NCBI GenBank assembly: GCA_002256025.1
Contig: NKIB01000497.1
Span: 1 to 32,266, forward strand
DNA from: Asterionella formosa
Lineage: Eukaryota
Direction: 5' to 3'
DNA: 32,266 nucleotides
Of this stretch, positions 2,776-27,858 are shown piece by piece. Every line of letters begins with the position of its first letter. The first letter of the stretch is position 1. Position numbers and translations under genes: made by a program. The notes beneath the pieces are model-generated. The model was not told the origin of the DNA, did no database searches, and saw only the letters and a list, made by a program, of their open reading frames with translations.

Positions 2776-3814
2776 ATGAAAGCATTTTTAGTTGCAAATA
2801 CACTCATGCGTTATCCTGCTCATAATCTTCCCTTCCAAAGTTTTGCTGATGCTTCTGATTATCAATTAGGGTCAGTCATTATGCAAAATGATCTCCCGGT
2901 TGCTTATTATTCTCTCAAATTATCGGCTGCCCAGAAAAATTATGCCATTATTGACAAAGCAATACTTTATGTCTTAAAATCTGTCAAAGAATTTCTCTCT
3001 ATACTATTGGGTGCGGTTCTACATGTTAACACTGATCATCGTAATTTTATTTATAATACCTTTCAAATTCAACGTGTTCTCCGGTGGAGGCTTTATATTG
3101 AAGAATATTAATCTACTTTTCACGGTGTGAAGGAGACTGATAATGCTATTGCAAATTATTCCATCTCTTGCTTCCCGAGGCTTGAGTCTTTGGTGGGGGA
3201 TAATATTGGATCGAAATCTTCAGCATCAACCTCCACTTCTATTTTCACTATTGAATTAGATGATGAACCTCTGTTTACCTGTTTCCTCAATCATCCAGTT
3301 TTGACAGAAAATATTCAATATACTCTGGATTATAAATCATTACATGATAGACAATTGCTGGATATAAAATTGATTCTCAATCAACAAACACGTCCGTTTG
3401 TATTTCCATTCTTTCAATTTCATGAAATACATTTGATATGTTTTGTGAAGAATCCAGGAGATTTTTGGCGTATTGCTATTCCTACATCATTATTGGATCC
3501 CATTATTAGTCGGTATCATCAGATGTTCTCTCATTTGGGTATGAAAAAATTATATGATACAATCTCTACGCATTTTTATCACTCCATATTAAAAGCAAGA
3601 GTGGAACATGCTGTAAGCATGCATAGGTGAAACATGTCAACGTTCAAAATTACCTGGAGCTGGTTTTGGTGAATTTCCACCTAGGAATGCATTGTTATTA
3701 CTATGGTCAGAAATCGCAGTGGATTTAATTGGTACATGGACGATGACAGTGGCTGCACAAGCAATTGAATTTCGTGATCTAAATTGTGTTGACACAGTCA
3801 CCTATTTACCAGAA
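2776..3814 (+). pseudogene. Ty3/Gypsy pol remnant (RNase H region, integrase zinc-binding domain, start of integrase core)
   Basis: Motifs ADASDYQLGSVIMQ, PVAYYSLKLSAAQKNY, NTDHRN, RVLRWRLYIEEY, YHQMFSHLGMKKLYDTISTHFY and WSEIAVDLIGTW, broken by stops and frameshifts. Confidence 0.9.
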
Positions 3815-12042: not shown

Positions 12043-12679
12043 TGCGCAAGTCATTTACAAGTGATGAAAAGCATTATTCCATGAGTAGCTACCGGTAGTG
12101 ATAATAATTATTGCTGCTGAGAATCCCTCCATTAGAGATAAAAATGGTGTCTTTGTTGATTAATTTAATTAGATGACAAATATAAAATTTATAAAATTAG
12201 TATTGTTAAACACTGTATCTGCAGCAATACACACAGATACACATTTTGGAGCAACAAAAAATGTGTTGCTGGAAGCAACATATCACCCGGATATGTGAGA
12301 TACAAAAAATTGGGCCAAGCAACATTTTTTTGATTTTTGTATCTCTGTTAAGATTGGCCCAAAGATGATATGATATTTGTAATTATTTTCCGGTCCAGTT
12401 ATTTTTATTTAGGCTATGCATATGCATATTACTGCTCAGGTATATCTAGATGTTCGTAGCTGGCCTGTCACTATTGACAATCCTTGTTGCTCCATGATAC
12501 ACTGTGATACAAATTAGTGATACAGTGTCAAGTTTGGAATGAATGAAATTCAGTTCAAATCAAGTTACTGTTGCTGATACATGTTCAAAAAATTTCAAAA
12601 TTTCTGTGATTCACGAAAAAAATGATTAGAACGGCCCTTACCGGTAGTTAGATACTTCACCATCACGTGGTACCTGGTA

Positions 12680-12775
12680 CCTTCAAGTTGCGGTAATTTT
12701 GCTGAAACTAAAGATTTAGCTATCTTTATTCTAGATTAAAATGTTAGTTAAAGCAAAATGACCGCAACTTGCTGG
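12680..12775 (-). mobile_element. MITE family A, copy 1 (Tc1/mariner-type, TA-flanked)
   Basis: TA|CCTTCAAGTTGCGGTAATTTTGCT ... AGCAAAATGACCGCAACTTGCTGG|TA. Its reverse complement aligns along its whole length with 15553-15651. Confidence 0.88.
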
Positions 12776-13588
12776 TACTAGGTTATTAGGCACACGGACC
12801 ATCATCAGTTTTACCGGCTCTCAGGTACTGTATACCGGTAGTTTTCTGTAGCCAGTACAATACCGGTAGGCGGTAAATACATCCTGCAGCAAGGAGTACC
12901 GGGTAGCCGTGTTTTTGGCGAAGGCTGACAAATTCGACGGCTTCGATGAAGTTCCTTCAGGAGTCAAAACATACGGTACCACATGGTCGTTATGCCCGCC
13001 CACCATCTGCATTTTTCTCTCCAATTCTAACAAAACAATGTTGGTGGCGTGGTCGTACATACTTGCTACGAGTAACTGTTGGACAATTTCACATCACCAG
13101 GCACACCAGCACATTTACCAAAGATGCTTGTACAATATGTGGAACGAGTCGTTTCGTTCATTTACAGTAACGGGGTAAGTGTGGTTATTTCGTGTATTCA
13201 TCATTACTCCGAATCACAAAATTAGTACCGGAAGCAAATATTTGAAGTCATGATGAAAGCATACCAGAGCTACATGAAAGGGAAAAATACTAGTATACCG
13301 GTAGTTGACACTTCGGAGTAATTACTTTATGTTCTTCAGTACGCACAGGAAGTAAAGGCATTGCTTGTTCTCGCGGTAAGGCGAGATTACAGCGCTAGAT
13401 TTCGTTCTGTTGCTAGATGTTGTTTATACCGGATAGCTGCTTTGATTAATCCCTATAGTCATCATAACCGAGCCCGAGCAACATCTCGTGTGCTATCTAA
13501 AGACCTTCAAAATCGCAAATATTGGTAGAAATATTGGTAGCTAGGTCCATCCGATAACTCACAAGCCAGCGATCTATGTACATTACAG

Positions 13589-14758: not shown

Positions 14759-15552
14759 GGTGAAGAAAGGAAGATAATGTTAAATAGTTGGACAGTAGCC
14801 GTTCGGAGCAAAATGTCGTTGTTGCGGCCTTATGATTGGTTTTATGGCTCATCCTTCAGGATGCTCTGTTCGGATTTTCTTGTTCGTGGGAATTCATTGC
14901 TGACGTTCGGAGGACAGACGGTCGGCGGACCGAGGCGATCTTCATTACCGGGGTATATTTACTCTATGTATGCAACAGGACTCGTGAAGAAAGGACGCTG
15001 CCTCATACATATACACTTATAAATATTGGTACCTGGTACCAGGGTACCAGGTAATAGGTATCGGTTTAAGTAGCCAGTATACCGGTGTGTAAATAATTTC
15101 TATTCCTCACCCAGTAATTTAAAAAGCCGACTGACCAGCCAACATTCATGTATTCTGATACAAGGGAGAAAGTAATGGTACCTGGTACCAGGTACCATTA
15201 CCAGGGTACCAGGGGTGGTACTGGTACCCACCGTGGTAGCTTCAAGATCGTGGAAGCACGTCGACCATCACATCATAAGTATCCACCATGTGTGCTGGTA
15301 CGTACACATTCAAACACTTCCTCAAACGAGGATGCATTTATATGAATAGTACTGTACCATGGGACCAGGTACGTATGTACCGGTAGTGAGTTGCAAAACT
15401 ATTTCCCTCGACTCACCTGACTAGATTCGCGTGATCCCGAAATATTAATCCCCTTTGGCTGATTGATCTTACCAGGTAACCTTAACCTGGTACCTATGTA
15501 CCGCCAGGCAGGCCGGTACCAGTGCCAGCAGGTACTCCGAGTACTGTATATA

Positions 15553-15651
15553 CCAGCAAGTTGCGGTCATTTTGCTTAAAGTAACATTTTAATCTTGGAT
15601 AAAATTAGCTCAATCTTTAGTTTCAGCAAAATTACCGCAACCACTTGCAGG
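15553..15651 (+). mobile_element. MITE family A, copy 2
   Basis: TA|CCAGCAAGTTGCGGTCATTTTGCT ... AGCAAAATTACCGCAACCACTTGCAGG|TA. Confidence 0.88.
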
Positions 15652-15679
15652 TAAGGTACCTGGTACTGGTACCAGGGTA

Positions 15680-16640
15680 CCACCTAAAACCTGAGAGTCA
15701 TCCTTATTTTACCCCATGTTACGACTCAAATTATTTCAGTCCGATTACATGGTAATGTTGAAGCAACTACGAAGGTAAAAAGTTTGTTATGTCATCGTTT
15801 TGCCTCATGGATAAGGATGACTCTCAGTATATTGGTTTTTAAATCATACATGAGGAAATTTTAATCTTCCATTTTTTCCCGATTACCCTATTGTTGCCAC
15901 AAAATTATTAGTCCATTACAGATTACTACACTTTATTTATTGTCCCTTTCGATGTTTTCTTCCCATAATAATAGTCGGTTTCGCTCGATGATACTCCACT
16001 ACCCCGGTACCGGTATTAATATTTGGTATCGGGTCAAACACAACTTAAGTTATTTATTTTAGTGACGGTTTCAGTAATATTCAATTACAGTACCGGTACA
16101 TCTATTGCGTCACAGCATATACTAGCAAATAATCTATTCTACTCAGAGGGCTTATAATAGCATAACTTCATGTTAGAAAATCAACAAATTTCAGTTGTTT
16201 CAATGGTTGTAATGATAATGTCAGTGTGTACATACCGGTAAACTGATCGCTGCCTTTAATCAATGCGTGGTGAACAGGACGGAGCAACAGCACTCATGTG
16301 ACATTGATGATCAATCTAAGTCAATAAATATAGAAACAAAAGACAGTAAATAATTAAATTAGCTGAAATGTGATCTAAGTGTCAAAAATGCATTGCCGGG
16401 TCAACAGGGTAATCTGATTTGACCCGAATTTTTGTGACAGCTAACTTTCGACCTATTTATCTCAAGAACGGCAACGAGAGCTCAACTTACAAGTTTGAAC
16501 ATTGCTCTTCCATACATTTCAAGGAACAACTTTGTCTGAAACAGAATCGTATCTCCAATATTCGTCCCAAAACGTGTGATTACCCTGTTTAAGGATGATT
16601 CTCAGTAAAAAAAGGAAGACTCTCAGTTTTTAGTAGGTGG
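15680..16640. mobile_element. 961-bp non-autonomous TA-flanked DNA transposon
   Basis: TA|CCACCTAAAACCTGAGAGTCATCCTT ... AAGGAAGACTCTCAGTTTTTAGTAGGTGG|TA. The motif CTGAGAGTCATCCTTA (15691) recurs inverted at 15812, 16590 and 16611. Confidence 0.8.
16403..16589. mobile_element. Possible small nested MITE
   Basis: 12-bp perfect inverted repeat AACAGGGTAATC / GATTACCCTGTT. No clean TA duplication. Confidence 0.35.
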
Positions 16641-16649
16641 TACGAGGTA

Positions 16650-16730
16650 CCAGCAAGTTGAGGTCATTTTGCTTAACTAAACAATTTCAAATTGGATACT
16701 AAAGTAAGCAAAATTGACACAACTTGTAGG
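16650..16730 (+). mobile_element. MITE family A-related copy 3 (same TIRs, shorter and diverged interior)
   Basis: TA|CCAGCAAGTTGAGGTCATTTTGCTT ... AAGCAAAATTGACACAACTTGTAGG. Confidence 0.75.
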
Positions 16731-17329
16731 TCCCTGTGTCCTGTACCAGCCAGGTACCCTGGTACGTGATAGTAAGTACCAGTACCTGGTATCTGGTACA
16801 GCAGTACCGAATACTTCATTGTCCTGGACCCCCCATGGTTGCTGCCCCTATCACATTTTTCTCGAGGTGGCACCAAACACACAATAATTTTCTAAACATC
16901 ACAGGCAGAGTAATGTGCTATAGTTCTGAATTCTGTGGTGGATTTTAAGTGATGCTGCCTACCATTTAAAAATTATGACACTACTGGGACTACAACTAAA
17001 TAATAGTAGTAAAAGAAAATTTTAGAGTACACTATTATTGAAATTCGAATGTATCGGAGTACGTGTAGTCACACTAGAGCCCATATGGGCTCAATGATGA
17101 TGAGTGAGGGTGAGTCCATTGTGGGACTCTTAGGAGTTGCAGTTTCGAGGTAGAACAACCATAATGGGCAAGGCAGGGCAAGGAGCTCATTATGAGCAGG
17201 TTAGGTGGTTGGAATCATGTGTAGATCAGTGTAGTGAATAGGGAGGAGAGTCGAAGGCGAGCAATCAAAGAATAGAAAGCAATAATGAAAACACTGCAAG
17301 GCCACAATCATGTAAACAACAATAAAAAT

Positions 17330-19199: not shown

Positions 19200-20930
19200 A
19201 ACTTGATGAGAAGGAAAAAGAATCAATTGAAGATTTAGATTATGCTGAAGTAGGCATTCAAGAAAATGATGAACTGTTTCAAATTGAAGAAGGAATAGAG
19301 AGGTCCTATGCTGCGTATTCTACTACTACTCTTGCATCAGATCCTGGGGAGCTAAGGCATTGTTACAAGGAGGCTATGAAAGGAGATGAGAGCAAGCAAT
19401 GGAGCGTTGCTTTTAAAAATAAAATCAACAAATTCTACAAGCGAAATGTTTGGAAAATGGTTTCTCGTGACAATCTCAATGGCAGAAAACCGTTAAACAC
19501 ACGTTGGGTACTATTCAAAAAGAAGTCCAAACAGGATAAAATTGTTCGATACCAATGATGTATTGTAGTGAAAGGCTATATTCAGATCCCTGGACTAGAT
19601 TTCATTGATTCATTTGTTCCAGTTGCAACAGATGCTTCAATGCGTATGATATTTGCACTCTTGCTATACAAATGGGATAAGTTTAAAGACAAACGATGTG
19701 TGTGTGAAATCATTGATGTCGAAGCTGCTTTTTTTGTTGAAGGAGATATGGATGAGCAAATATATATTGAATTGCCAGATGGGGTTTTCGACTTTGGTTT
19801 CGAAACACAAGAAACAATGAAAAACAAAAGCATAAGGTTGGAGAAGGCCCTGTATGGCACAGTTCAAGCAGTACTACAATTCTTCAAGAAAATGGTTCAA
19901 AACCTAACCAAAAGTGGATTGCAGCAAAGCAAGGTCGATCTGTGTGTATTCTTCATCAAGGATAACAACGCACTGATCCTAAAATTGCTACACATGTTGA
20001 TGATTGTTCAATTGCTAGAAAGCCAAAAATATTAAATGGTTCAAAAATGAAATCAAGAAACAGCCACTGCACAATCAAGGAGCTTGATCACTTGAAAAAA
20101 CATTTGGGAGTGTGGTACAATTAGTGCCAAGATAAAGTGGGACGCTACTTGGAGTCTAGAATGGAAGATTTTGTGCATGTTTTGCTCAAAGATTATCATG
20201 ATATTTTTGGAATGTATTCAAGCGATGCATCGACCCCAGCATTTCCAGGAATTGTTCTCAGAAAGAATCCAGACAAAGTGTCTCTCCATAAAGAATATCG
20301 TTCTTTGTTCTGTAAAATGTTGTGTTTTGTGAAGAAATTTTGACCAGTATGTGCAAATTCATGCCAGTAACTTTCCCAACATTTATAAAATCCAGGGGAG
20401 GCCCATTGTAATGCTATTGAACGTTTGTTAGGATTCATTGCAACTGATGAAAGAAACAGAAAATTAAAAATGAGACCACCGCATGAATTACGAGTGCAAG
20501 ACGTGGTAGAAAGCTCATTTGGTGATAATCCAGATACCAGGAAATCGACAAGTGCATATTTGGGCACAATTGGTGGTGCATGCCTAGTGACTTGGATTTC
20601 TAAAGGAAAAAATTGTTACTGTCTCCAGTACTGAGGCAGAGTAGTGGCACTATCAGATGGATCAAAGTAAACAACGTTTATAATGAATCTATTCAATGAA
20701 GTTGAATATGTGGAAATGACCAGTATTATTGTTGAAGACAATGCAGGTGCAATATTTTATCAAAGAATCAACAGGTTGGTTCACAAACCAAGCACATTGA
20801 TGTGGTGAGATATCATATCATTCTTCAAGAAAGGCTGGGGATATTAGCTAGAGTTGATTATGTGAATACTGGTACTTGGAAGAATCCAGCAGACCTACTC
20901 TCAAAGAATGTCATTCATGCAACTCGCTCA
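19200..20930 (+). pseudogene. Ty1/Copia reverse transcriptase and RNase H remnant
   Basis: Motifs YKEAMKG, NVWKMV, RWVLFKKK, KGYIQIPGLDF, IIDVEAAF, LEKALYG, HVDDC, TRKSTSAY, SSTEAE, EDNAGAI, TKHIDV and NPADLLSKN, with many stops and frameshifts. Confidence 0.93.
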
Positions 20931-21645
20931 CATTATGAATGCTGTGACTATGGATTGTTGGTTTTGAGATCAGGGATGACGATAAAATATATGAAATCCA
21001 ACAAGTCGAGGATTGCTATTTTTAGTGAGCGATTAGAAACCAAGACATGCAATACTTATTGACAAATGAATTGAGATGCTTATTCATTGTCAAAGCAAAA
21101 GCAAGATCATATTGACATGATCAAGGAAAGTCTGAGATGTCTTGTTCAGGATTAGCTACTTGAGTAATCAGGCAAGAACAAGACTGATAGACTATTAATA
21201 GATGGAGTAGCTCAAAAATATTACAAATTGTAAAGTGAAAATACGTTTTCAGCTTTAGTGATCTTAAAAGTAAGATCTGTGATATTCTCAATGAAAAAAG
21301 CTAGACAATTTAACAAGTGGTCAGTACAGTACCGGGTACTGTTACTTATTATCAACCACAGGTACATGATGATGCCTGGGTGATGGAAGGATGGAGCGAG
21401 GACATGGCTTGTAAAAACCCAGTATGGGTAATATTTGGCGACAAAGCAAACTACCTGTATATACGGTGCATAACCAGTGGTAGGGAAAAGTTCCTGGTGA
21501 GAAAAATCTTTGATATATTTATTTTAGTCATACTGTAGTACCGGTAACTGTTGCCAGGCTTATGTGTGGTAGCAACAAGCTGATGTTCCTTCAAGCAGTC
21601 ATGGAAGCGGCAAGATTAAAGATAATGGATCCATAAATCTACATT

Positions 21646-22197
21646 ATGGGTCTATTTAGCAAGAAGAATCGCGAAACGGCAGGAGTTATGGCTCCCGATA
21701 GTGCTCCACAAGGACGAGGGTTTGTTCCTTCTTCTATTCCCATGAATCAGGCTGTCGAACTCGGGACAATCAACTATGTGAATCTTACGCCTGACGGTCG
21801 CCATGGCGAATTTGAGAAGGCACTCGAAGTTGCTCGTCTTACTGGCAAGCCAATTTTCGCCAATTTCGTTGAGTGGTCTGGATGAGCCGGGTGCAAGGAC
21901 GCGGGAGCGATTTTCGCTGACCCTTCTATCAAGAGGGCCGCCGAAGAATTGTTTGTACCGTGCGCCTTTAACACCTGGGACCGGAGCAACCGTACCCACG
22001 ACATGGCTATGCGAAGGTGGGGTGCTGGTCTCGCATCCAGCTGATGGGGGTACCTCCGGATTGTCAATCCGGAGGGTACTGCAGTGGTTACTGGGACTCG
22101 ACAAATCACTGGTCGAAAGAATTTGAATGATGTCAAACAAGTAATGCGTGAGGGCTTGGAAGACTTGGGCATTGATGTTCCAGATTATTTGCTATAA
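21646..22197 (+). CDS. Thioredoxin-fold selenoprotein (resembles the VPGUxxT thioredoxin-like family), 183 aa with in-frame TGA at codons 80 and 133
   Basis: The frame continues past TGA 21883-21885 as ...GKPIFANFVEWSG-U-AGC-KDAGAIFADPSIKRAAEELFVPCAFN... A second TGA at 22042-22044 (SS*WGYLRIVNPEG) precedes the end ...LEDLGIDVPDYLL-TAA. SECIS-like hairpins follow. Confidence 0.85.
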
Positions 22198-22223
22198 ATA
22201 TAAGAAGCTGTGGGAGTGCCGGA

Positions 22224-22275
22224 GGCAACGGAATGACCCGGTTCAAAATATTTGAATTGGTGACAACTCGTAGTC
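22224..22275 (+). promoter_or_regulatory. SECIS-like element 1 (short apical helix)
   Basis: Core ATGAC (22233) / TGAC (22261), helix CCGGTTCAAA/TTTGAATTGG with an A-rich apex, lower helix GGCAACGG/TCGTAGTC. Confidence 0.55.
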
Positions 22276-22326
22276 ACTTTCTTCCACAAACGAGAAAACA
22301 TGCTTGGAAATAGTTTTGAAAGGAAA

Positions 22327-22382
22327 TTTGCGAATGACTGGATCGAAATGCAAGACTTTTGCGTTTCTCCACGAAATGCAGG
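22327..22382 (+). promoter_or_regulatory. SECIS-like element 2
   Basis: Core ATGAC (22334) / CGAA (22372), helix TGGA-(TC)-GAAATGC / GCGTTTC-TCCA (11 bp), AA at 22352-22353, lower helix TTTGCG/TGCAGG. Confidence 0.7.
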
Positions 22383-22934
22383 GCTTCTTGAGAAGCTCTC
22401 CAATTTAGTAGTTATAAGTAGTGTGAATTGCAAATCTGGACTTAACTAGGTGGCATAGCTTTGTCACATTCGTCTGCCTAATTCAGAGGAGATCGACCAT
22501 CATCACTTTCCAAGGATCAATATATGGTACAATCTTTTGAATTGCAGTTGATGACATGGCCCATCATTGCTTCGAGACTTGGCTATACTGATATGTATAG
22601 GATCATATCTGGACAGATTTAAAACTTGGAGGCAGGGCTTCAAATACCATCGTGTGGTCGACAAAACTACTGGTACCAGGTGCCTTTGTAGGAGGTATAA
22701 TACCCGGTACTGTATACCTTATACGACCAGATGTATACCGGTACGGTAAAAAGAAAAAGACGCACATGTGACGATGAACACTCTAGCTGTCATACCGGGT
22801 ACATCATAAATCATCGTCACAATCAGAGTTCGCGACGATGCGTGTGATGGGGATTTACTTTTCACCTTCCACGCATCACACATTTTCTTCCGATAACATC
22901 TCACAACTAAGTATAATAAAATTGCTGTTACGCC

Positions 22935-25070
22935 ATGACGAAGGCAGTGCCGCTCCTGAATGTGCTGCTGCTCCTGTTGGTAATACTGCAGGGAATCTTC
23001 CCTTTTGCTCCCCATGGCAGACAACGACCAACATTTTCGTCCAAAGCCGAAGGCATTGTTTTGTTGGCAGCGAAGAAGGAACCAAACATCGGCAAGGACG
23101 GTGAAGTTGGGAAAGGAGAAAATTGGATTGAACGAACCTTCCCTGTCGACTTTGATGGATCCCAAGATGGAGGCTCGCGTCAGCTGAAAAAGGTGGAAGA
23201 CTACAATCTCGGAATTTCTGGAAAGGCATTCCAAACAGGACCTCTGTCGGCTCGCATGTATGATGCCATGGTGAACAACAATAAGCAAGTGGGAATGTCA
23301 CCAGAGATTATAAAGGCGTTCAAATTGTATGCTATGGACTTCACTGCTAGAGAAGCAACCAAGGCTGCTTTGAAGCAGAATGGACTTGAGATGGAGCTAT
23401 CTGAGGAAGAAATGGATGAAGGTATGTGGGGAGAAATGGATAACATCCAAATTTTGGATGCTCGCCACAAACCTGTGGGGCCTTTATATGAAGGTGTTGA
23501 TGATGTTGTTGAGGTATGGGCGCCTGGGCAGCCCTTTAGCTTTGTCGTCAGAAATGTTCCAGCAAAGATTCGCGAGTTGTCGTTGGAAGAATTAATGACA
23601 GCCTTGGATCCAAAGGGGGAAAATACTGACCAAGCGAAACAAGCAGGGATACCCATTCCTTTCGAAGAGATTCGATCACTCAAAGACTTGGCCAACGACA
23701 ATGTAAGGCGCACGGAAGCTGCACCACGAGGGGCTACCGAAGAAGCGAAAGCATACAGCGGCAAAGATCAGCGGGGATACCGCGTTATTTCCAGAAGTGA
23801 CCTCCTTTTAGACAGTGTTGACGCTAATGGTGCCGAAAACGAGAAAAGTAAGTCTTTTGCCGCTTAGCATGCATGTCAACATCCGCACGATAAATTCGGT
23901 TCTATCTCAACTATTTTTGTTTCTTTGCTTTTTTTACCAGCCCTCATGCATGTCATGGATGCCTTGGTCTCTCACGGCGTCTTGATCGTAGATTTGACAG
24001 ACAAGGGTACGACGTTCAAATTGGCAGTCGAAGTTGCAAAAATGTGGGACGCATCCAATGCATTATTTGGATCTATCGACAATGAACCAACCATAGAACA
24101 AACCTTACCAGAAATGGTATCTATTCCATCATCGCCGTATGCCAAAGTTGGTTATGCGAACTACAACAATGGGATGCAATTCCTCGAAACTAGATTGGCT
24201 CGCGACGGAAGCGGTGTATTACCCGTTGAGGCTCGGGATCTGCTTGGTACGGATGGATCAAGTAATTTATCTAAAGCCTTTGGGACCATCGCGGATGTTG
24301 GAAAAGATGTGGTTCGCATCGTGACTGCCGCAAGTACAATTGAATACGAAGGATTTGAGTCCGAAGGGCCATCCTTATCGGGACTACCATTTGTTGGGAA
24401 AGCTGAATTGGGAAGTGACTATGGTATGGGAGAGATCCTGGCCTCTCGGGCCGCCGCCAAACTCGTGGACGAACTCATCGATGATGGAACATTGTCGGCG
24501 GTTTCCACTTCAGGTCAGGGAACTGTCAGTATGAGCCCACACCGCCTTTGCCGATACAAGAACGTCAACGACGATGCCCCCAAGGAAATTTTTGGAGCTC
24601 ATACTGATTCGACGTTTGTGACGATTGTGCCAGTCGCTGCTGTGAGCGGACTGGAAGTGTACGATGAAGCGGCAGAAAAATGGTACAGACCTGAACTGAT
24701 GGCTCGACTTCAATGGCAGCTCGAACAAGTCGCCAAGGACAAGGACAAGGATGCATTCTACGAAACGATTTCATCTGTGGACGATGGTGTTGATGATATT
24801 ACCATTCCCTGGCATGCTAGGTACATCCTTGTTATGCCTGGTGAATTTCTACAGATTGTTTCCAGGAACGAGGTGTCCGCAGCAGTGCATCGAGTGGTCG
24901 CCGGAGGCCCACCAAGACTGAGTGCGCCTATTTTGCTTCGGGGGAGACCAGGGATGGCACTTGACGTGCCAAAATATCTTGGTGAAGTCAACAATGAGTT
25001 ACTTGAGGAAGTAAATGGGATGGAGATGCAACAAATTCACGAAGCCATGCAGCCATCCTCATTTGATTGA
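22935..25070 (+). CDS. 2-oxoglutarate/Fe(II) oxygenase (IPNS-like), 680 aa, probable plastid presequence; exons 22935-23847 and 23941-25070
   Basis: A 93-nt GTAAGT...TTTTTACCAG intron joins the two ORFs in frame. Motifs AHTDS (HxD), VHRV (H) and RLS. The hydrophobic signal peptide is followed by FPFAP. Confidence 0.88.
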
Positions 25071-27028: not shown

Positions 27029-27858
27029 TTGGGATTTCTCGATATATTTCTAGTTTCAAACGAAAAGATCGACGATGCGATGCGAAAGGGCACTCTCTTG
27101 CGAATAGAGAATAAGTGGACAATGTGTCAAGCGCAATAGATTACGACTGGCACAAGAAAAAGTCAACACAACAGAACACTTCGGCCGTTGATTAGCTTTC
27201 TACTTTTTTGTTCGTTGCGGTTTCTTACCCCTCCTTCTGCTGCCGTTCCGGCCTTTCTGTGCTTCGTCGGATGGATGACATGACTTTTATTTGGCTGGTT
27301 CGTTTTCAAAGCGTCGATGACGTCACCAATGGTCATTTGTGCATGACGCACGAGTGATCCAAACCCAACGAAGATACTCCAAAAATCGAAGGAGTACCAG
27401 TAGCTACGTAGTCTACTACCAACCGGTAGGCGGACAGGAATGACTACTTGTAGTTGTACATTTACAGTAGACTACTGGTACCTGGTACTGGTACAAAGTA
27501 TCCTGGTAGAATGATACTGAAAATTCTTGTCTAAATGCATAGATATATACCGGTACTTCTATTTACTGACTCAACATACATAACATTTGTAAATTATATA
27601 TAGATAGTGCCGGTACTGGTACTTAAATAATTAACGAACAGCCAAGAACTCGTTCCCTCCCCGTGGTCGTCTCCTCTTCTGCGAACAAGCGGAGACATAA
27701 AACTATATAAAAACTGCCGGAAAGGCCCGAGGGTCGAATCATCAACAACTTTGTCCATTTGTCTTTGTGCAAAATGTCAAATGCAAATCTCTTGCCAGCA
27801 ACATCGATCATTACCATCCACATAAAGCAGGAACTGTCAATATGCACCAGGAGGCAAG

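Follow-up and report, generated by a model that had tools for sequence, protein, structure and literature searches.

The gene and its two in-frame UGA codons

The window referred to throughout is the complete 32,266-nt contig NKIB01000497.1 of the Asterionella formosa assembly GCA_002256025.1. Its sequence has the look of eukaryotic nuclear DNA. Between positions 21646 and 22197 it holds a diatom gene that probably encodes a small thioredoxin-like protein with two selenocysteine (Sec) codons. The features of the coding region are as follows.

21646–22197, forward strand: intron-less coding sequence of a 183-aa thioredoxin-fold selenoprotein, translated with TGA as U and closed by the stop codon TAA at 22195–22197
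21883–21885, forward strand: first in-frame UGA (U80), within W-S-G-U-A-G-C, a UxxC motif at the start of helix 81–90
22042–22044, forward strand: second in-frame UGA (U133), within S-S-U-W-G-Y
22053–22075, forward strand: 10-bp SRE-like stem-loop in the coding sequence, 8 nt downstream of the second UGA, identified by folding and by comparison of loci

The product of the open reading frame gave a weak Pfam match to Thioredoxin_7 (E = 0.0043) and an NCBIfam match to the VPGUxxT thioredoxin-like selenoprotein type 2 entry (E = 1.2e-9), both below the cut-off. AlphaFold returned a model with a pLDDT of 86.8, and the best PDB folds for this model were thioredoxin domains of the DsbD-C/DsbH/AGR/ERp19 type. 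A search of PDB sequences with the family profile identified zero matches at E up to 1. In the model, U80-x-x-C83 occupies the usual thioredoxin active-site place at the head of its helix, and U133 is positioned just ahead of strand 135–140. From fold topology, we take the region before this strand to be the cis-Pro loop beside the active site; thus, U80 and U133 may be neighbors in space.

Homologues were found as 36 proteins, the sole named one being a hypothetical protein from the diatom Epithemia clementina; one relative, P0030, stands at 81% identity. When 30 of these were aligned with the window protein, most had W at both Sec positions. This W would be a TGA that gene callers translated as W, as the DNA of 11 related metagenome loci (L001 to L011) confirms: each of the 11 carries TGA at the two positions, and the coding sequence downstream of either codon is conserved. 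The 50 residues that follow U133 are conserved among the homologues, hence read-through is required. Three homologues (P0020, P0023 and P0025) have Cys in place of U80. In the protein alignment the second position of P0020 and P0023 is Asp, not Cys, and P0025 ends there. The family may already have been listed as a selenoprotein: in the main texts of two surveys, the candidate entries are a "thioredoxin-fold protein" (Lobanov 2007) and "TlpA" (Jiang 2020).

Several smaller features were seen around the gene. A short upstream open reading frame (ATG, ten further codons, TAA) was noticed by eye at 21601–21636, within the 5' leader. The amino terminus M-G-L-F-S-K-K (21646–21670, residues 1–8) resembles an N-myristoylation site with a basic patch behind it, and several homologues start alike with M-G-x-F-G-(K/R)-K. 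Elsewhere in the window, the palindrome TACC(N0-1)GGTA occurs at 32 sites versus 0.38 expected, a number reached in 0 of 100 shuffles. The sites cluster between genes, for example at 12090–13303, 15030–16791, 21330–21546, 22701–22801 and 27479–27555, and they are present on both flanks of the selenoprotein gene. The translation of a mechanically called open reading frame at 19568–20035 resembles, by eye, a fragment of a copia-type reverse transcriptase.

Two SECIS-like hairpins in the mature 3' UTR

Public runs containing at least part of this stretch amounted to 20 rows, 17 of them recorded as RNA, and the RNA runs are lake, freshwater or algal metatranscriptomes. Transcript contigs from four runs, X1, X4, X5 and X6 among them, were compared. 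In X6, a poly(A) transcriptome run, an 863-nt contig is colinear and gapless over 21588–22440 and is then followed by 10 A. Since the genome reads ACTTAACTAG at 22440, the 10-A tail is non-templated; since the tail is attached downstream of the second hairpin, both hairpins are present in the mature mRNA. The X6 transcript form is intron-less and includes both UGA codons and both hairpins. The first-pass annotation had raised the prospect of polyadenylation upstream of the second hairpin, and in this transcript form the poly(A) site lies beyond it. The contigs from X1 and X5 continue into the next gene (ATG at 22935). Contig depths from X4, which are blind to an extra upstream poly(A) site, drop between 22264 and 22388. 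A variant RNA contig covering 22235–22357 differs at five positions, of which the four specified (22265, 22281, 22289 and 22309) fall outside the stems and cores and would offer weak support for the hairpins. The untranslated region and its hairpins may be laid out as follows.

22198–22440, forward strand: 3' UTR of 243 nt, to the poly(A) addition site given by the end of the X6 contig
22224–22275, forward strand: H1, the proximal SECIS-like hairpin of ATGACC type, from sequence and folding; aligns with the proximal elements of L001, L003 and L002
22327–22382, forward strand: H2, the distal SECIS-like hairpin, in the minimum-free-energy fold of its own segment and of the whole UTR

Two hairpins with cores 101 nt apart, each with an ATGAC core and an upper and a lower helix, had been described in the first-pass annotation, which also held that they were not a simple duplication. 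Sequence and folding bear out the first statement, and the second agrees with the finding that the two sequences differ outside GAAUGAC.

H1 lies 35 nt after the stop codon. Its helix I pairs 22224–22231 with 22268–22275 (GGC.ACGG / UCGU.GUC) in seven pairs and one A.A mismatch, and its core places AUGA (22233–22236) opposite the 3' GA (22262–22263), with AUGAC facing UGAC. Helix II joins 22238–22247 to 22251–22260 in 10 pairs, the last three of them A-U, below a loop of AUA. At 7–10 bp overall this helix is at the lower size limit, and the earlier remark that the upper helix is atypically short was correct. The minimum-free-energy fold contains the upper stem only. Helix I is absent from it: its ensemble probability is about 0.38, and a GUGAC/GUCAC hairpin competes with it. 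The SECIS-like fold is calculated at -12.7 kcal/mol and the optimal structure of these 52 nt at -14.5; the fold z-score is unremarkable (-0.75). The apical loop is 3–5 nt (3 nt in the minimum-free-energy fold) and A-rich, with four A at the stem top that begin 8 nt past AUGA. In the centroid fold, an AA is unpaired 10 nt past AUGA, only 13 nt before the 3' GA and thus below the 15–39 nt range of Lobanov 2007.

H2 lies 136 nt after the stop codon. Helix I is 6 bp (22327–22332 with 22377–22382), and two further helices lengthen the lower stem to 22312–22397, the pair probabilities of this lower part being 0.69–0.92; the whole fold has pair probabilities of 0.69–0.99 and an unremarkable z-score of -1.64. 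The core is formed by AUGA (22334–22337) and GA (22373–22374), with AUGAC facing CGAA. Helix II (22339–22353 with 22359–22371) is composed of 4 bp, a UC bulge and 9 bp, for 13 bp in all, and is capped by the 5-nt loop GACUU. An AAG is located at the top, its AA 14 nt from AUGA, or 13 after the N of the core, which is the upper limit of the pattern. By geometry, H2 is a near-canonical type-I SECIS.

For a comparison with formal definitions, the four SECISearch1 patterns and the SECISearch3 filter were taken from the supplement of Mariotti 2013, the patterns being re-implemented by the author. The same paper gives a core consensus of UGAN/KGAW and filter limits of 7–15 bp for stem 2, 8–30 nt for the apical part and a bending of at most 2; in the methods of Lobanov 2007, an unpaired AA (or CC) is placed 10–13 nt after the core and 15–39 nt before the 3' GA. 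The context of both hairpins is that of a SECIS, namely the 3' UTR of a mature mRNA whose open reading frame has in-frame UGA at a conserved Sec/Cys position, and both can form the tandem G.A/A.G core. The 3' cores, UGAC in H1 and CGAA in H2, are each one position off KGAW, as is the CGAG of the pattern-matching elements of L007 and L009. Helix I with an internal loop below the core is present in H2 and in H1, the loop of H1 being small and its probability about 0.38. Judged by hand, the minimum-free-energy loops (10 bp and 3 nt in H1; 13 bp and 5 nt in H2) are too short for the SECISearch3 filter, and with the terminal A-U pairs open both hairpins fall within it (7 bp and 9 nt in H1; 11 bp and 9 nt in H2). 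They fit the filter only with these pairs open, and the pair probabilities are 0.54–0.93 in H1 and 0.92–0.99 in H2.

Neither hairpin matched the re-implemented strict, default or loose SECISearch1 patterns in the window UTR, where the sole loose+ match combined a different 5' core (TTGA at 22316) with the 3' GA of H2. H1 fails because of its size, that is, the spacing of its AA to the core and to the 3' GA. H2 fails only on its 2-nt bulge, which takes two deletions when the pattern permits a single one. Among the related loci, the strict pattern matched the distal element of L002 and the single elements of L007 and L009, from which it follows that standard SECIS elements are in use in the family at these sites. 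The L001 distal element was a loose+ match only, and the proximal element of L001 and both elements of L003 gave none. Rfam models at the gathering score identified no match in the whole window, SECIS included, and at E up to 10 over 22100–22900 there were three weak unrelated matches and no SECIS. On seven related loci, Rfam gave no SECIS match even for the pattern-matching elements. Since it also misses the canonical elements of the relatives, the Rfam negative says little.

These failed calls by Rfam and by the three patterns are what would be expected if neither hairpin were a SECIS, with UGA being read through or reassigned in another way, or the gene being a pseudogene. Such a reading is hardly credible against the rest of the evidence. 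Both UGA codons are kept in all the related loci with conserved coding sequence after each, the UxxC falls where a thioredoxin has its active site, some homologues having Cys there, the mRNA is expressed, one neighboring mechanically called open reading frame ends in TGA, and relatives have pattern-matching SECIS elements at the same places. That at least one of H1 and H2 is the SECIS of this mRNA is close to certain.

How often such hairpins arise by chance was assessed with a scanner that takes an ATGA, a GA 16–70 nt further on, an unbranched helix anchored at both cores with an energy of at most -8, and a flanking duplex of at most -6 near the core; the thresholds were set once the H1 values were known, which flatters H1 somewhat. 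From 470 ATGA in 2 x 32,266 nt, the scanner returned 10 candidates at nine distinct sites, H1 and H2 included. The two best-scoring of the others (14295/14298 and 29371) are inside long opposite-strand open reading frames. The 243-nt UTR has exactly two ATGA, and both are inside ATGA/GA hairpins. In 100 dinucleotide shuffles of this UTR the mean was 0.01 sites, and two sites were reached in 0 of 100. Over the UTRs of eight loci, nine sites were found versus 0.67 expected.

Further candidates were rejected on inspection. One at 22551–22630 in the window is downstream of the poly(A) site, and its 74-nt inner part is weak. A candidate in L009 (908–971) has a GGC repeat as its pairing partner and lacks a conserved counterpart in L007, and one in L007 (921–971) has its helix II 6 nt from the GA. 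The fourth, in L005 (3094–3133), matches the strict pattern but is of low complexity and overlaps the candidate at 3131.

Related loci and the stem-loop after the second UGA

The comparison of untranslated regions was based on eight distinct loci including the window. L006 duplicates L005 and L008 duplicates L007 in the 3' part, each pair being counted once, and L010 and L011 were left out of the UTR counts because they are interrupted after the second UGA. When 12 elements were anchored on AUGA and GA, they presented a common plan in which helix II begins one position after AUGA (two in the proximal element of L002). Helix II has at least 4 consecutive pairs in 12 of 12 elements and at least 6 in nine of the 12, with sequences that differ between elements. 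A non-Watson-Crick N.N pair stands beside the tandem G.A in 11 of the 12.

A proximal element is found 35–100 nt past the stop with the core ATGACC in the window, L001, L002, L003, L007 and L009, and with ATGACT in L004. A distal element in a GAAUGA context is located 136–250 nt past the stop in the window, L001, L003 and L002, and the UGGA/UCCA at the base of helix II is identical in H2 and in the distal element of L003. The two-element layout is thus present in four of the eight loci, namely the window, L001, L003 and, less cleanly, L002. L004, L005, L007 and L009 keep both UGA codons with one convincing element each, and two SECIS elements are therefore not required for double recoding. The UTRs of L007 and L009 resemble each other only around the single element and over about 40 nt beyond it, and none of the other candidates in these two loci is conserved. 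In both, the single SECIS is immediately followed by a conserved block of about 40 nt that includes a short palindrome (776–821 in L007 and 845–889 in L009). The protein tree is poorly resolved; of its two main clades, one contains the two-element loci, and L007 and L009 sit within it on a long branch.

Structural conservation in orthologous UTRs had been put forward by the first-pass annotation as a check of the pair. It was found in part: the proximal and distal ATGA/GA hairpins recur in L001 and L003, and less cleanly in L002, and the other half of the loci have a single element. The argument that two SECIS elements with two UGA codons make double recoding more plausible fared similarly. 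The UGA codons are kept in 11 of 11 related loci and the layout in four of eight, but four loci manage with one element.

A covariance model for the whole family was not built since a MAFFT alignment of 10 elements left the 3' halves out of register. A model named R1 was made from the distal elements of L001 and L003. With default filters it found no match in 44.6 kb. With the filters off, it gave eight matches at E up to 10 over 20000–25000, of which H1 ranked at the top with 9.9 bits (E = 0.6) and H2 was third with 8.7 bits (E = 1.1), neither score being significant. On the related loci, true-looking elements and noise alike scored 8–13 bits.

With these comparisons in hand, the possibility that only H1, in the ancestral position, works as a SECIS may be considered. 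H2 would then be some other structured UTR element, for example one for stability or localisation, with an ATGA/GA by chance. An ATGACC-type proximal element is common to seven of the eight loci (counting the ATGACT of L004) and is a canonical SECIS in L007 and L009, as this reading would have it. Yet H2 has the better SECIS geometry and stability, distal elements in the GAAUGA context recur in L001, L003 and L002, the last with a strict-pattern match, and chance ATGA/GA hairpins are as rare as 0.01 per shuffled UTR. The proposal is very unlikely.

The opposite proposal, that only H2 works and that H1 is the shrunken original SECIS, now vestigial or an auxiliary kink-turn (for example one that binds protein without Sec insertion), is a stronger competitor, even if it is still rather unlikely. 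H2 is stable, forms the minimum-free-energy fold, has a long lower stem and places its AA as far out as the pattern spacing permits. H1, whose loop has 3–5 nt, does not satisfy the spacing rules, and the proximal homologues in L001 and L003 have no unpaired AA, so that in this clade the ATGACC elements may fall short of a full SECIS. The published statements available on the AAR motif describe it as needed for synthesis and not for SBP2 binding, and the upstream SECIS-like element of human Sep15 is reported as non-functional. Against an idle H1 stands its conservation. The proximal ATGACC cores are the only part of the UTR that MAFFT aligned among the window, L001, L003 and L002, and these four lineages retain the proximal core together with helices I and II in UTRs that are otherwise unalignable, which argues for selection. 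Moreover, an ATGACC- or ATGACT-type element is the sole candidate in L007, L009 and L004 and must work there, and H1 itself has its four A at the stem top.

The coding region adds a third structure. The SRE of SELENON/SEPN1 is a stable stem-loop in the coding sequence, a few nucleotides downstream of the Sec UGA. The 10-bp stem-loop at 22053–22075 is likewise a conserved stem-loop shortly 3' of a Sec UGA. In the window, L001, L002 and L003, 39 of 40 cells are paired. The pair 24–34 is G-C in two of these loci, C-G in one and A-U in one, and double-sided changes are also present at 27–31. The covarying pair involves the third base of an Arg codon and the first base of a variable codon (Pro, Ala or Ser). 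A hairpin is present in L004 and L005 with the register shifted by one, and L007 and L009 have none. Over the eight loci, 75% of cells are paired compared to 35–61% with slid partners. Nothing comparable was found in the sequence after the first UGA. From this analysis, the stem-loop looks like a candidate SRE-like redefinition element. It differs from the SRE of SELENON/SEPN1 in that it follows only the second of two UGA codons, is kept through covarying codons, and has an activity that is putative.

Interpretation and comparison with known systems

The reading we favor, by a modest lean, is that both H1 and H2 are SECIS elements kept by selection, H1 as a shrunken ancestral counterpart and H2 as an added near-canonical type-I element, with the stem-loop aiding the second UGA. 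H1 would be the counterpart of the ancestral ATGACC-type SECIS of the family and H2 a second SECIS common to its nearest relatives. The tandem G.A/A.G kink-turn cores of both would recruit a SECIS-binding protein and the Sec-specific elongation factor, by which both in-frame UGA codons would be decoded as selenocysteine, and the stem-loop 8 nt past the second UGA would probably help recoding locally in the manner of an SRE. We infer SECIS function for both hairpins, the binding of protein and any division of labor between them from sequence, folding and comparison of loci.

A variant with such a division is improbable. The pair would be non-redundant: the proximal ATGACC kink-turn, minimal here and without its former AA motif in L001 and L003, would only load the SECIS-binding protein, the distal element would serve as the full SECIS, and the stem-loop in the coding sequence would time recoding at the second UGA. 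If true, this would be a compact system of three parts, dedicated to exactly two Sec codons, that evolved independently of SELENOP. A small, intron-less gene with two UGA codons, two different hairpins 101 nt apart and a conserved stem-loop after the second UGA, with relatives that have one hairpin or two, would provide a simple system for the matching of SECIS elements to UGA codons and for asking why a second SECIS was ever selected. Elements of this lineage escape standard SECIS predictors, a point of relevance to how algal selenoproteins are counted.

When compared to eukaryotic SECIS elements in general (Rfam SECIS_1; types I and II), the hairpins share the location in the 3' UTR, a helix I, an internal loop, an AUGA/GA core, a helix II and A residues at the top. 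They differ in the 7–10 bp helix II and 3–9 nt apical part of H1, and in the 2-nt bulge and small loop of H2.

Two SECIS elements in one mRNA have been called unique to SELENOP in the portions of the literature at hand, where the only other potential double SECIS arrangements reported are those of human Sep15, with its non-functional upstream element, and Ciona SelW1. These two share with the present gene a pair of SECIS-like hairpins in the 3' UTR of an mRNA other than SELENOP. They have one Sec codon, however, whereas the present gene has two and its pair of elements recurs in diverged relatives. Among titles and the opening lines of abstracts, no literature report of a double SECIS in an alga was found. 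The main texts of Jiang 2020 and Lobanov 2007 have no mention of "two SECIS".

The arrangement of two SECIS-like hairpins in an mRNA with two Sec codons is real, is conserved in four of the eight distinct loci and lies outside SELENOP. In terms of structure, the mRNA has the composition of the SELENOP type, with two or more Sec UGA codons and two SECIS-like elements in the mature 3' UTR. As in vertebrate SELENOP, there is more than one Sec codon, the two elements are non-identical, and the layout recurs in some of the relatives. Homology to SELENOP was not found, the product having a weak Thioredoxin_7 match and a fold of the DsbD-C/DsbH/AGR type. Unlike vertebrate SELENOP, this is an unrelated 183-aa thioredoxin-fold UxxC protein with two UGA codons and a UTR of 243 nt in which the cores are 101 nt apart, and some members of its family manage with one element. 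In the literature as far as it was available, a two-SECIS mRNA is the hallmark of SELENOP and the exceptions are rare and doubtful; the present protist gene stands outside SELENOP.
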